From contig JBFESZ010000008.1 of assembly GCA_041548245.1 (NCBI GenBank), forward strand, positions 1 to 39,539: 39,539 nucleotides of DNA. The letters are read 5' to 3'. The translations under genes were made by a program, and so were the position numbers. Position 1 is the stretch's first letter, and the number at the start of each line of letters is the position of its first letter. Source of the DNA: Sulfurimonadaceae bacterium. GTDB taxonomy: Bacteria > Campylobacterota > Campylobacteria > Campylobacterales > Sulfurimonadaceae. This document shows positions 8,251 through 11,916 of this stretch, piece by piece. Below the pieces are notes generated by a model. The model worked only from the letters and a program-made list of their open reading frames with translations. It made no database searches and was not told the DNA's origin.

Positions 8251-8919
8251 ATGAATGATGCACTACAGAACAATGCTTTAATCTTGAAAGAGCTTGAAAA
8301 GTCAAGCAAACTTCCCAAAATCGATGAACAACATCATCTTGTCTTTGAAAAAGGCGAGAATGGTTTTGATACCGGTCATTATTTTTATTTTATTATTTCG
8401 GGAAAGATAAAGGTTTCTGAAGTAAATTTTGAAAATGGTCATGAACAGACACTCTATCTTTTAAGCAGCGGCGATATGCTTGAAGTCACAACCCTATTGG
8501 ATGGGAAACCTCATGATTATTTAATCAATGTGCTTGAACGCAGCGAAGTCATTGCTGTCCCCCTTGAATCTGTACGTAAACTCCTGCATGAGGATCCAAG
8601 TTTTCAAAGTTTCTTTTTCCCCTATGTTGCTGAACAGTTGCGCGCGATGGAGAATCTCGCAGTTGATCTCTCCTTGTATAGTGTCTATCAGCGTATTATT
8701 CGTCTCTTTGCTCGTTTTGTCGACAGTAGTGAGTCAAAACCAAACCTGAAAATACTGGAAGGTTTTTCCCACGAAGAAATTGCTTCAATGGTGGGTTCAG
8801 TGCGCAAGGTGGTCAATCGAGCACTGCAAAAACTTAAAAAAGAGGGCGTGATTGATCTTTCCAGAAAACAGTTAAAACTTACAAGCCTTCAAAAACTTTT
8901 GGATAAATTGGACTTTTAG
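8251..8919 (+). CDS. Crp/Fnr-family transcriptional regulator
   Basis: cNMP-type beta-barrel (FYFIISGKIKVS...EQTLYLLSSGD) and C-terminal HTH (SHEEIASMVGSVRKVVNRALQKLKKEGVI). No cysteines. Confidence 0.92.
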   Translation: MNDALQNNALILKELEKSSKLPKIDEQHHLVFEKGENGFDTGHYFYFIISGKIKVSEVNFENGHEQTLYLLSSGDMLEVTTLLDGKPHDYLINVLERSEVIAVPLESVRKLLHEDPSFQSFFFPYVAEQLRAMENLAVDLSLYSVYQRIIRLFARFVDSSESKPNLKILEGFSHEEIASMVGSVRKVVNRALQKLKKEGVIDLSRKQLKLTSLQKLLDKLDF

Positions 8920-8960
8920 CCACTTAAGTGGCAGAAGATATTTTTTTTCTTTTTTATAAT
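8919..8960 (+). promoter_or_regulatory. hsp20 promoter with a perfect 14-bp palindrome (putative Crp/Fnr site)
   Basis: GCCACTTAAGTGGC at 8919-8932; TATAAT at 8955-8960. Confidence 0.65.
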
Positions 8961-9012
8961 ACTTCTTGAAATTTAAACAACATACTTTAAAAGGTATGCA
9001 AAGGAGTATACG

Positions 9013-9441
9013 ATGTTAATTACACGTTTTGATCCATTTAAAGAGTTAAGAGACTTGGAAAACCGTTTTCTTACTAATTATTCCAAAGCAGGTGTGCAAG
9101 AGGACAGTATTAGCACATTTTCTCCAAAGGTGAACACACGTGAAGGGGAGTTTGCCTATCATCTGGATGTTGATCTGCCGGGAGTGAAAAAAGAAGACAT
9201 CAAAGTAGATGTGAAAGATGGTAGATTGACGATATCTGGTGAACGTAATTTCAAAGAAGAGGTGAAAGAAGAGGACTATTATAAGGTCGAGACAAGCTTT
9301 GGAAAGTTTACACGAAGTTTTGAACTTCCGGAAAATGTTGATGTGGAGAATATTGAGGCAAGTAGCGAGAATGGTGTCTTGGAAGTGATCATTCCTAAGC
9401 TTGAAAAAGTCGATAATGTGAAGACAATTACAGTAAAATAA
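9013..9441 (+). CDS. Small heat-shock protein, Hsp20/alpha-crystallin family
   Basis: DLPGVKKEDIKV, LTISGER, FGKFTRSFELPENVD, ENGVLEVIIPK; AAGGAG RBS. Confidence 0.97.
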   Translation: MLITRFDPFKELRDLENRFLTNYSKAGVQEDSISTFSPKVNTREGEFAYHLDVDLPGVKKEDIKVDVKDGRLTISGERNFKEEVKEEDYYKVETSFGKFTRSFELPENVDVENIEASSENGVLEVIIPKLEKVDNVKTITVK

Positions 9442-9479
9442 AAACATTTATAATATACATATACGAATACTTTTTATAT

Positions 9480-9545
9480 GGATACAGTTTAAACAGGTAT
9501 GATCAAATCATTTAGTCGGTTTTAAAAACCTGTTTAACTGTATCC
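9480..9545. repeat. Long near-perfect inverted repeat (hsp20 3' hairpin or terminator)
   Basis: GGATACAGTTTAAACAGGT (9480-9498) pairs with ACCTGTTTAACTGTATCC (9528-9545), with a one-base bulge. A pyrimidine/T-rich tract follows. Confidence 0.8.
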
Positions 9546-9592
9546 GTTCTTCTATCCTTTGTTTTTCTGATAAATTTCGCTATACTTCCATC

Positions 9593-9825
9593 TCAATTAG
9601 ACATTTTCTTATAAAGTACCTCTATGCTAAGAAAATGAAGTGATTGGGCACGAAGCTTAAAGTGAAGATCTTTTTGGTCTTGATTTTAACCTTTTGTGCC
9701 GGTTACGTGTGTACGTCCACATTGAAGACGGTCAGAGGAAAGTGTTAAAAAGTTCATCTTTTTTCTTCCGCATTTATGCGACTCTTTCCCTTTCCTTATT
9801 TGATTTGACTACAGATGTAACCAGC
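9593..9825 (+). ncRNA. Candidate structured RNA (rpsP leader or independent ncRNA), family unassigned
   Basis: gcTATACT -10 at 9581-9586. Three abutting helical domains at 9594-9646, 9647-9700 and 9701-9822, with many G-U pairs on the + strand. Confidence 0.6.
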
Positions 9826-9856
9826 AATGGGTAAAATATTATATTTAAGGAAGAAT

Positions 9857-10084
9857 ATGACAGTAATTCGTTTAACTCGTATGGGTCGTAAAAAACAACC
9901 TTTCTACCGTATCGTAGTAACAGACTCTCGTAAACGTCGTGATGGTGGTTGGATTGAGAAAATTGGACACTATAATCCAATGGTTTCTCCAGCTGCAGTG
10001 AGCTTCGATGAAGAGCGTCTTAACTACTGGATCAGCACTGGTGCTCAAATGAGTGACCGTGTTAAAAAGATCACTGGTAAATAA
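9857..10084 (+). CDS. rpsP: 30S ribosomal protein S16
   Basis: [30 protein letters not shown]. Start moved to ATG 9857, which follows an AAGGA RBS. Confidence 0.98.
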
Positions 10085-10086
10085 GA

Positions 10087-10326
10087 ATGGTCGCTGAGTT
10101 TGTCGCAGAATATGCGAGAATGATTGTCTCAAGCCCTGATGATATCTCTGTTGAAATTCAACAGAGTGATGATTTTGCGGAGATTACCGTATATGCGAAC
10201 CAGGCAGATGTTGGTAAGCTTATTGGTAAAGAAGGTAAAATGATTGGTGCGATTAAGACAGTTATATCTGGTTGCAAGGCAAAAGACGGCCTGAGCTATC
10301 GTATTAATGTCGAACCAAAATCGTAG
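10087..10326 (+). CDS. khpA: KH-domain RNA-binding protein (KhpA/YlqC family)
   Basis: DVGKLIGKEGKMIGAIKT GxxG motif; located between rpsP and rimM. Confidence 0.9.
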   Translation: MVAEFVAEYARMIVSSPDDISVEIQQSDDFAEITVYANQADVGKLIGKEGKMIGAIKTVISGCKAKDGLSYRINVEPKS

Positions 10327-10332
10327 GTTTTT

Positions 10333-10872
10333 TTGTTGAAAACTGATAAGTCTGCGAAATTTCAAGTTGCTAAGCTTGGCAAAGCTGTAGGGTTGCACGG
10401 AGAGATGAAACTTCATCTTAAATGTGATTTTCCTGAACAGTTTAAGTCAGGTGCATGTTTTGATACAAAACGTGGTGAATTAGAGATCGAAAGCTATAAC
10501 CCTGAACGAGACCTGGTCAAGTTCAAGGGGTACAACTCGATTGAAGAAGCAAAAAGACTAACGAACTTAGATCTTTTTACGACTGAAGAGAAAACACGTC
10601 AAGATATTCAACTTGAAAAAGGTCAATACTTTTGGTTTGACATTGTCGGTGCTAGCGTTTATGAAGCTGATTTGCTTTTGGGCAAGGTGGCAGAAATTGA
10701 ACGCTTAGGTGCGACGGATTATCTTAAACTGGATACAGATGAAGATCTGGTCTCAAAAAAGATGCCAAACTCATTTTTAATACCGTATCTGGATCACTTC
10801 ATCTTAGAAGTGGATACGGAAGCTAAAATCATCAAGGTGCAGGGAGGATTAGATATCCTCGAAGCGAGCTGA
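10333..10872 (+). CDS. rimM: Ribosome maturation factor RimM
   Basis: [24 protein letters not shown] motifs and operon position. Confidence 0.95.
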
Positions 10873-11570
10873 TGAAGTTTAGCTTTATCACACTGTTTCC
10901 TGAGTTGATCTCAGGTTACTTTACAGATTCTATCTTGTCGCGTGCGATAGAGAAAGATCTTTTAGAGATTGCCTATGTCAATCCTAGAGATAAAAGTACG
11001 GATAAGTGGAAAAAGGTCGATGACACAGCTGTTGGTGGGGGAGCCGGAATGGTAATGACCCCTCAGCCTTTGTTTGATACCCTAAATGGACTAAAAGAAG
11101 ATGATGTGCATATCATCTTTGCTACACCGGTTGGCAAACCGTTTAATCAAAACGATGCCAAACGTTTAGCGAAGAAAGAGCATATTGCCTTTGTAAGCGG
11201 TCGTTATGAAGGGATTGATGAGCGTGTTATTGAAACGTTTGCCGATGAAGTGTTTTCTATCGGTGATTATATATTGACGGGTGGAGAACTGCCATCATTG
11301 GTGATGGCAGATGCTATAAGCAGGAATGTAGAAGGTGTTCTTGGAAATCAAGAATCCTTAGATGAAGAGAGCTTTGAAGGCTTACTTCTGGAAGCACCTG
11401 CTTTCGCTCGACCGCCTAAATACGAAAATATGGATGCACCATCAGAATATATGAAGGGAAATCGTGCTAGAATTTCAGCACTAAAAATTCTCTTGTCTGA
11501 GTGCAAGACGAAATATTTTCGACCTGATCAGCTAAAAAAGCATCAAAGAAGGAAAAAATATGAGAAATAA
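10872..11570 (+). CDS. trmD: tRNA (guanine37-N1)-methyltransferase
   Basis: [33 protein letters not shown]. Confidence 0.98.
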
Positions 11571-11916
11571 GTACATCGAAAACTTCGAAAACGCACAAAT
11601 CTCTGAGAAAAATGTTCCAGATTTTCGCGCTGGTGACACTGTACGTCTTGCCGTAACTATTAAAGAAGGCGACAAAACACGTGTTCAAAACTATGAAGGT
11701 GTTTGTATCGCAATGAGCGGTACAGGTACTGGTAGAACAATTACAGTTCGTAAAATCGGCGCTAACAGTGTTGGTATCGAACGTATTTTCCCTATCTATT
11801 CAGATAGCATTAATGAGATTACAGTAATCCGTCGCGGTCGTGTTCGTCGTGCGAAGCTTTACTATCTTCGTGATCTTACAGGTAAGAAAGCACGTATCAA
11901 AGAGATTCGTCGCTAA
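11560..11916 (+). CDS. rplS: 50S ribosomal protein L19
   Basis: [28 protein letters not shown]. Confidence 0.98.

Follow-up and report, generated by a model that had tools for sequence, protein, structure and literature searches.

The window analysed here, a stretch of 39,539 nucleotides from a Sulfurimonadaceae bacterium, contains a 416-nt gap between an hsp20-like gene (9013-9441) and rpsP (9857-10084), raising the question of what this gap encodes. An earlier note on this DNA placed a multi-domain structured RNA in the gap and suggested that it is either a new ribosomal leader or an undescribed non-coding RNA (ncRNA). Leaders that respond to r-proteins are a known kind of regulator in which each family is narrow, and they often, but not always, resemble the rRNA site of their ligand. 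To our knowledge, many lineages are without any described r-protein leader. In E. coli, the trmD operon is reportedly not autogenously controlled by S16 or L19.

Results

Genomic context and promoter

The ORF list and its translations place rpsP on the + strand with an ATG at 9857, a stop codon that ends at 10084 and the SD sequence AAGGAAG at 9847-9853; the product has the S16 N-terminus common to relatives. Four genes named from their translations follow on the same strand, i.e. a KH-domain gene (10087-10326), rimM (10333-10872), trmD (10872-11570) and rplS (11560-11916). Using tblastn, the order rpsP-KH-rimM-trmD-rplS was also found 3' of the leader region in 7/7 other loci.

Further upstream in the window lie ffh and a crp/fnr-like gene. 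Because the end of ffh is located directly upstream of the leader promoter in 5/15 same-family extracts, the crp/fnr-like and hsp20-like pair, which occupies 8251-9441 between ffh and this promoter, looks like an insertion in the lineage of the window. Just 3' of hsp20, we observed a near-perfect inverted repeat of ~18 bp (9480-9498/9528-9545; loop ~29 nt) with one extra T in the left arm and followed by a T-rich stretch. This repeat is present in a single copy in the genome; it probably terminates hsp20 transcription or serves as a palindrome for protein binding.

The gap contains a candidate promoter, promoter P1 (9549-9586, + strand), which consists of a T-rich upstream stretch and the -10 hexamer TATACT at 9581-9586, with a predicted transcript start at about 9593-9596. 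This hexamer had been pointed out previously, and it is conserved: in 15/15 aligned relatives, neither TATA.TT nor the T columns upstream of it vary, and the similarity to relatives starts ~35 nt before the -10 regardless of whether the upstream gene is ffh or another gene. A sigma-70 consensus scan of the window flagged neither promoter P1 nor the second -10-like site described below; promoter P1 was left unflagged because it has no -35 hexamer.

In the alignments, we also identified the conserved sequence AATGGGTAAAAT at 9826-9837 (+ strand), in which GGTA is invariant and which contains the -10-like TAAAAT at 9832-9837 that the earlier note had listed as a second -10-like site. In genera g1, g7 and g2 of the family, the distance from the motif to the SD stays at 12-16 nt, also where inserted hairpins or a 117-nt repeat separate the motif from stem B (see below). 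The -10 hexamer positions within the motif are not strictly kept, and the motif is absent from short-form leaders. AATGGGTAAAAT may be either a -10-like sequence, belonging to a second promoter, or an RNA motif; as a -10-like sequence directly before the SD, it could give rise to a leaderless rpsP transcript. An ATG at 9827, which is inside the conserved AATGGG and in frame with rpsP, would add 10 residues to S16; it is probably not used because relatives have this frame closed or lack the ATG.

Fold, novelty and copy number

The earlier note had held that a match to a known Rfam family, a multicopy repeat, missing covariation or a folding energy no better than that of shuffled controls would speak against its proposal; on all of these points the results described here and in the next section went the other way. 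On the + strand, the region 9593-9860 has an MFE of -77.7 kcal/mol compared to -53.55 +/- 4.04 kcal/mol for 200 dinucleotide shuffles (z -5.98), and 0/200 shuffles were as good. The reverse complement reached an MFE of -53.7 and a z of only -2.21, with 3/200 shuffles as good; thus, the fold signal is strand-specific, in agreement with the previous argument that many of the G-U pairs are valid on the + strand only.

A search against Rfam 15 gave 0 matches at the gathering score across all 39,539 nt of the window. In E-value mode, the interval 9400-9900 gave nine sub-threshold matches, mostly to eukaryotic microRNA and snoRNA families, and the best of these (23.4 bits vs a gathering score of 79) was to a microRNA family and fell on the neighbouring inverted repeat. 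Similarly, at E<=1 none of eight loci with the short form of the element matched an Rfam model. The window's 2.16-Mb assembly contains a single copy of the element.

The structured RNA spans ~9593-9826 (+ strand) and ends ~30 nt before the rpsP start codon. Neither in the window nor in two insert-bearing relatives did we detect a terminator-like site separating the element from rpsP. ORFs of >=10 codons in 58 leaders vary in start, frame and length, i.e. there is no conserved leader ORF, and a 46-codon ORF at 9694-9834 is found in the window only. On this ground, we ruled out that the gap encodes a leader peptide, also a proline-rich one spanning the C-run described below, and, judged from these sequences, the element is not coding.

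The RNA runs contained 5-7% of the sampled words. For 4/15, contigs were placed at 80% likeness; these derive from relatives and are uninformative on transcript ends. The KH gene, rpsP and hsp20 were covered, and one low-depth X9 contig covered 9707-9854. The stretch 9448-9706 was left uncovered, which is neutral as to transcription of the leader.

Covariation and conserved helices

RNAalifold applied to 14 sequences returned 59 pairs, 11 of which were compensatory. We then scored 53 pairs of a hand-refined structure on 35 sequences aligned by a covariance model. Standard pairs made up 95.8% of 1699 pair cells compared to 89.8% in column shuffles and 40-50% when the partners were slid by 1-3 columns. 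Moreover, 18/53 pairs had compensatory changes, with 103 cells changed on both sides, which was reached in 0/500 shuffles. Because the 35-sequence alignment was fitted to the model, hairpin P1 was rechecked on a structure-independent alignment of 53 distinct 42-nt segments that was loop-anchored and gapless. In this alignment, 11/11 pairs were compensatory, with 110 double-change cells (0/500 shuffles reached this) and a covariation score of 0.613 vs 0.218. In total, covariation is clear.

The helices listed in the earlier note are all present in the window at the coordinates it gave; however, some of them are not conserved in relatives. Hairpin P1 (+ strand) consists of the stem CATTTTCTTA (9602-9611)/TAAGAAAATG (9628-9637), previously described as the inner stem of domain 1, and a 16-nt loop (9612-9627) with CCUCU at 9619-9623; ten columns of this loop are invariant, and the stem covaries in relatives as detailed above. 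By contrast, the outer helix CAATTA (9594-9599)/TGATTG (9641-9646) is present and not conserved. P2 (9640-9706, + strand) has stem A as its base and the domain 2 (D2) insertion as its interior. D2 comprises the helices 9652-9655/9691-9694, 9657-9663/9683-9689 (TTAAAGT/ATTTTAA) and 9665-9670/9676-9681 (AAGATC/GGTCTT), all of which had been recognised before and show covariation in relatives; among its 17 pairs, six are compensatory and 96.6% of cells are paired (35 sequences). The D2 helix GGCACGAAG/TTTTGTGCC is present, and the GGCAC/GTGCC part of D2 is not conserved. D2 as a whole is missing in genus g2 and in one genome of g1 (G003).

In domain 3, the closing helix GGTTACGT (9701-9708)/ATGTAACC (9815-9822) and TGTA/TACA are present as described previously, and the closing helix as well as CGTC/GACG and GGAAAG/CTTTCC covary in relatives. 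Hairpin P4 is formed by CGTC (9714-9717) and GACG (9727-9730; + strand); 100% of its cells are paired in the 35 sequences, with one pair being G-C in 27 and A-U in eight. In most of 64 leaders, a P4 hairpin is predicted immediately 5' of AGAGG, and its stem is CGTC/GACG or, in other types, CGCC/GGCG, CACC/GGTG or CATC/GATG. The P5 region follows (9731-9799, + strand) and includes AGAGG at 9734-9738, which is invariant and present in 64/64 leaders listed. Helix P5 pairs GGAAAG (9737-9742) with CTTTCC at 9784-9789 or, alternatively, at 9790-9795; it encloses the variable P6 hairpins (9743-9783) and is followed by a pyrimidine-rich 3' strand. GGAAAG/CTTTCC is 98.6% paired with 2/6 pairs compensatory, and the lower part of P5 is 80.5% paired with 4/5 pairs compensatory (35 sequences). 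Of the remaining helices proposed for this domain, GTCAGA/TTTGAC is not conserved in relatives, and AAAAAG/CTTTTT and CGCA/TGCG belong to the variable region, where relatives carry other hairpins of different sequence. CAATTA/TGATTG, GGCAC/GTGCC and GTCAGA/TTTGAC are, therefore, window-specific or chance pairings.

Two single-stranded C-rich patches are conserved, i.e. CCUCU in the P1 loop and the C-run after P5. AGAGG could pair with either of two conserved strands, CCUCU of the P1 loop or the 3' C-rich strand, and both are free of variation. Both sides of a possible CCUCU/AGAGG pseudoknot are invariant, and in the long form such a pseudoknot would overlap and compete with helix P5. Two further pairings, GGGTAAAAT with ATTTTAACC of D2 and GGTA with TACC of the P1 loop, were rejected, as neither showed covariation in the alignments. 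Finally, P5 together with the U-run that follows it in genus g1 was considered as an intrinsic terminator and dismissed, since the U-run is not found in all types and the scan did not flag it.

Two competing stems

The alignments revealed a conserved helix that the earlier note had missed. This helix, stem A, pairs GTGATTGG (9640-9647) with CCGGTTAC (9699-9706; + strand). Stem B, which closes domain 3, pairs 9697-9713 with 9810-9826 (+ strand). The two stems are mutually exclusive because both use GGTTAC (9701-9706), which has GTGATTGG as its partner in stem A and a downstream GTAACC in stem B. In the 35 sequences, 94% of stem A cells are paired, and the variation is almost entirely G-C to G-U or A-U to G-U and vice versa: there are 30 wobble-compatible single changes opposite an invariant partner and few breaks in the six inner pairs. 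Stem B is paired in 99.2% of cells; at pair 125:309, 27 sequences have G-C and eight have A-U, at pair 133:301, 24 have C-G, seven A-U and three G-C, and a further pair in the stem B extension switches between G-C and A-U in 5/14. Based on these pairing levels together with the wobble-compatible and double changes, respectively, both stems look selected.

Upon constrained folding of 35 leaders, stem B was part of the unconstrained MFE structure for 33/35, and the mean energy was -77.5 kcal/mol with stem B vs -71.6 kcal/mol with stem A. Averaged over the 35, the SD had an unpaired probability of 0.74 in the stem B state compared to 0.64 in the stem A state, a small difference whose sign was mixed in genus g7. 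As the predicted SD access was not consistent across the 35 sequences, sequestration of the SD by a switch between the two stems was rejected. Short forms of the element, i.e. those in two other families and in Sulfurimonas-labelled loci, have no stem B and, therefore, a switch between stems A and B is not part of the core.

Distribution and forms

Using BLASTN, we detected the region in 13/16 other same-genus genomes and in one further genus of the family, and a 30-nt promoter piece in another genus of the family; 16 genomes taken singly from other families gave no match. With 14 sequences, we built a covariance model, which matched 43/151 sampled genomes of the family, including 13/16 in g1, 13/16 in g7 and 8/29 in g2, and matched weakly in five more genera; there were no matches in g33 (0/29) and g37 (0/12). 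The labels of the matched genomes include Sulfurimonas sp., Sulfurimonadaceae bacterium and uncultured Campylobacterales. In 43/43 genomes, the best plus-strand match was located 5-147 nt before the S16 start and on the same strand, with the start located by a pattern in 42/43 and by eye in the remaining locus (L054). The RNA is well conserved (225-233 bits) also in relatives with 53-147 nt to the start codon.

Among the collected rpsP upstream regions, there are 59 distinct leaders with the P1-loop motif, and the element occurs in several forms. The long form of ~235 nt, which is that of the window, is found in genera g1 and g7; a form without domain 2 is found in genus g2 and in G003 of g1; and a short form with ~110-150 nt of structured RNA is found in Sulfurimonas-labelled records. 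The short form contains P1, a simple P2 hairpin, P4, GGUAAGAGG, P5 and the C-rich strand and is without stem B; it has ~130-170 nt between the -10 and the SD and no second -10-like motif. The common core, accordingly, is P1 with its near-invariant 16-nt loop (CCUCU), P4, the invariant AGAGG, and P5 with a C-rich 3' strand.

This core was also found upstream of rpsP in two further families of the order, i.e. in three families in all. A 17-letter P1-loop pattern matched 48/401 sampled genomes of the order, compared to six matches, among those listed, for a reversed control pattern, and there was never more than one match per genome. Of these 48 matches, 36 were verified to lie upstream of rpsP (8/19 and 20/20 fetched loci plus eight already matched by the model), 11 were chance matches elsewhere and carry loop variants, and one, in G121, is unverified. 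By family, the element was present in 15 verified genomes (plus one unverified) of 38 in f1, 7/11 in f11 and 14/38 in f23; these counts are lower bounds because the pattern misses variants, the window's own included. In total, we consider the structure and the distribution of the element solid.

The 117-nt insert mentioned above lies in G002 (L010:1760-1876) between the leader and the rpsP SD and has inverted ends. It is a dispersed repeat found in seven places in that genome and probably represents a small REP-like or mobile element. A comparable core recurs in the inserts of two Sulfurimonas-labelled loci (similar pieces in L095 and L132).

Several rpsP upstream regions are without the P1-loop motif. 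These include Sulfuricurvum-labelled loci (L069, L073-L078, L083 etc.), a set in which some are Sulfurovum-labelled (L085, L108, L110, L114, L122, L136, L140) and a set in which two are Nitratifractor-labelled (L071, L079, L093, L126, L133). Such regions contain at least three other conserved sequences, one per group, which may be further unrelated leaders of the rpsP operon.

Comparison with rRNA

In local alignments to 16S rRNA of G006, the leader of G006 scored 20 and that of the window 18, compared to shuffle means of 20.3 and 20.2, respectively. Shared 8-mers numbered seven for the 16S rRNA of G017 (4.0 expected) and nine for its 23S rRNA (8.9 expected). The comparison was made on primary sequence; the window's own MAG has no 16S. 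At this level, mimicry of rRNA was not supported, since the similarity to 16S and 23S rRNA is at chance level; for the same reason, a short stretch shared with the helix-17 region of 16S rRNA is only a lead.

Discussion

Here, we describe a structured RNA upstream of rpsP in Sulfurimonadaceae and related families of sulfur-oxidising Campylobacterales. The earlier proposal of a new ribosomal leader or an undescribed ncRNA is supported, and of the two the leader is favoured because the element is always directly 5' of rpsP, there is no terminator between them, and the short forms leave no room for a second promoter. Moreover, a cis-acting leader agrees with the position and strand of the element, its conserved promoter, its single copy per genome, its strict linkage to rpsP, its highly conserved loops and the lack of a terminator. 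Our best reading of the sequences is that the element represents a new, previously undescribed leader family of Campylobacterales of which the window would be an expanded member. We estimate at about 0.6 the probability that it acts as the 5' leader of rpsP-KH-rimM-trmD-rplS by binding a protein made from this operon, with S16 or L19 being likeliest, and thereby mediates feedback repression. Several points weigh against this reading: sequestration of the SD is not predicted, the similarity to rRNA is at chance level, AATGGGTAAAAT could yield a leaderless transcript, neither promoter was flagged by the sigma-70 scan, and autogenous control by S16 or L19 is reportedly absent from the E. coli trmD operon.

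From this arrangement we infer how the leader may function. Transcription would start from promoter P1 (-10 at 9581-9586), and the RNA would fold at ~9593-9826 to form a binding site for an operon-encoded protein, most likely L19 or the first gene's product, S16. Whenever this ligand exceeds the available rRNA, it would bind the leader and lower operon expression. Given that only ~30 nt separate the structured domain from the start codon, repression would probably act on the initiation of translation; the hairpins and the 117-nt repeat that relatives carry between the structured domain and the SD are awkward for a purely steric mechanism. Relative to the core, the window's form adds the P2 insertion (domain 2) and the 3' strand that makes stem B in competition with stem A.

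An unlikely elaboration is that the RNA is a bistable sensor in which stems A and B switch folds on a ribosome-assembly signal and the SD-like AGAGG is contested by two CCUC-containing strands, the P1 loop and the C-rich 3' strand; free S16, the KH protein, RimM or unassembled 16S rRNA could provide the signal. The same cis-acting leader might also respond to a non-ribosomal ligand, i.e. the KH protein (KhpA-like), RimM or TrmD, and in this way link operon expression to tRNA modification or the maturation of ribosomes. In the window and in 7/7 other leader loci, rpsP is followed by the KH gene, rimM and trmD, the single-stranded C-rich patches in the P1 loop and after P5 are conserved, and rRNA mimicry that would indicate an r-protein was not found. 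Nevertheless, we consider this ligand rather improbable: no feature links the RNA to the KH protein, RimM or TrmD singly, there is no hairpin like a tRNA anticodon arm and no conserved proline-rich ORF over the C-run, and, in the available parts of PMC7247131, every autoregulatory leader of an r-protein operon is assigned to an r-protein. Even less credence is given to a structural 5' element without feedback, e.g. a stabiliser, a processing site or an aid to co-transcriptional folding. While no repression mechanism can be derived from the sequence and insertions before the SD are tolerated, a mere stabiliser would need neither a near-invariant 16-nt loop across three families nor an invariant AGAGG and two competing conserved helices.

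The last two explanations appear highly improbable. A riboswitch responding to an ion or small molecule, or an RNA that senses another cellular signal, with stems A and B as the expression platform, would account for the many highly conserved nucleotides in loops and junctions of a multi-helix fold and for two mutually exclusive helices that are both conserved. Riboswitches, however, usually control metabolic or transport genes, and this element is found before one ribosome-related operon only, once per genome; furthermore, the short forms without stem B would place the switch outside of the core, and neither stem state shifts the predicted SD access consistently. Similarly, the element could be an independent ncRNA of ~235 nt made from promoter P1, with rpsP transcribed from the second -10-like TAAAAT (9832-9837). 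Its own conserved -10, the -10-like motif kept directly before the SD in g1, g7 and g2, and the conservation of the RNA (225-233 bits) where it is 53-147 nt from the start codon are consistent with this idea. Against it, no terminator-like site follows the element in the window or the two relatives, the short forms run into the SD region without a second -10-like motif, GGTA rather than the key -10 positions is invariant, and the element was never found away from rpsP.

How does an operon leader for S16 or L19 in Campylobacterales compare to known systems? A candidate S16 leader, for which the available text mentions no experimental test, has been described upstream of rpsP in Flavobacteria (Eckert & Weinberg 2020, PMC7247131). 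As far as that text goes, both RNAs are structured, lie directly 5' of rpsP, usually with rimM next, and have S16 as the proposed autoregulatory ligand (PMC7247131); however, the Flavobacteria candidate is from another phylum, and neither the window nor the eight short-form loci match an Rfam 15 model. The L19 leader of Firmicutes (Rfam L19_leader) is, according to the same partial text, also present in Flavobacteria (PMC7247131). L19_leader is likewise an autoregulatory 5' leader, and L19 is encoded in the same neighbourhood as the Campylobacterales leader. L19_leader lies directly before rplS, whereas the Campylobacterales leader precedes rpsP, has rplS as the fifth gene and has no Rfam match. 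The operators of E. coli S15 and of the S4/alpha operon are pseudoknotted. With an operator of this type, an r-protein could trap or exclude the 30S subunit without simple sequestration of the SD. They share with the Campylobacterales leader a structured 5' UTR that ends near the SD and, possibly, a pseudoknot, here CCUCU/AGAGG; by contrast, there is no homology in sequence or structure.

Supplementary motif lists aside, we found no report of an rpsP or S16 leader for Campylobacterota or Epsilonproteobacteria in the literature. The available portions of PMC7247131, PMC11109978, PMC8632094 and 10.64898/2026.10.21.760802 do not mention Campylobacter or Epsilonproteobacteria, and rpsP/S16 is mentioned, in these portions, in PMC7247131 only and there only for Flavobacteria. 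Thus, as far as these portions go, the Flavobacteria RNA is the only leader candidate for an rpsP operon that we found in print (PMC7247131).

With the element described here, Campylobacterales gain a well-supported leader candidate, which is backed by strong covariation, by its presence in three families and by a graded series from minimal to expanded forms. The covariance model provides a means to annotate an "empty" intergenic region of ~130-280 nt, or up to ~390 nt where inserts are present, which recurs in MAGs and genomes of the Sulfurimonas-like kind. The graded series opens the questions of which of the proteins S16, KH, RimM, TrmD and L19 feeds back and of how an RNA operator gains domains. 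If the bistable sensor were true, the S16/RimM/TrmD/L19 assembly operon of Campylobacterota would have its first described feedback RNA, one whose modular expansion from a core of ~110 nt into a switch of ~235 nt can be traced.
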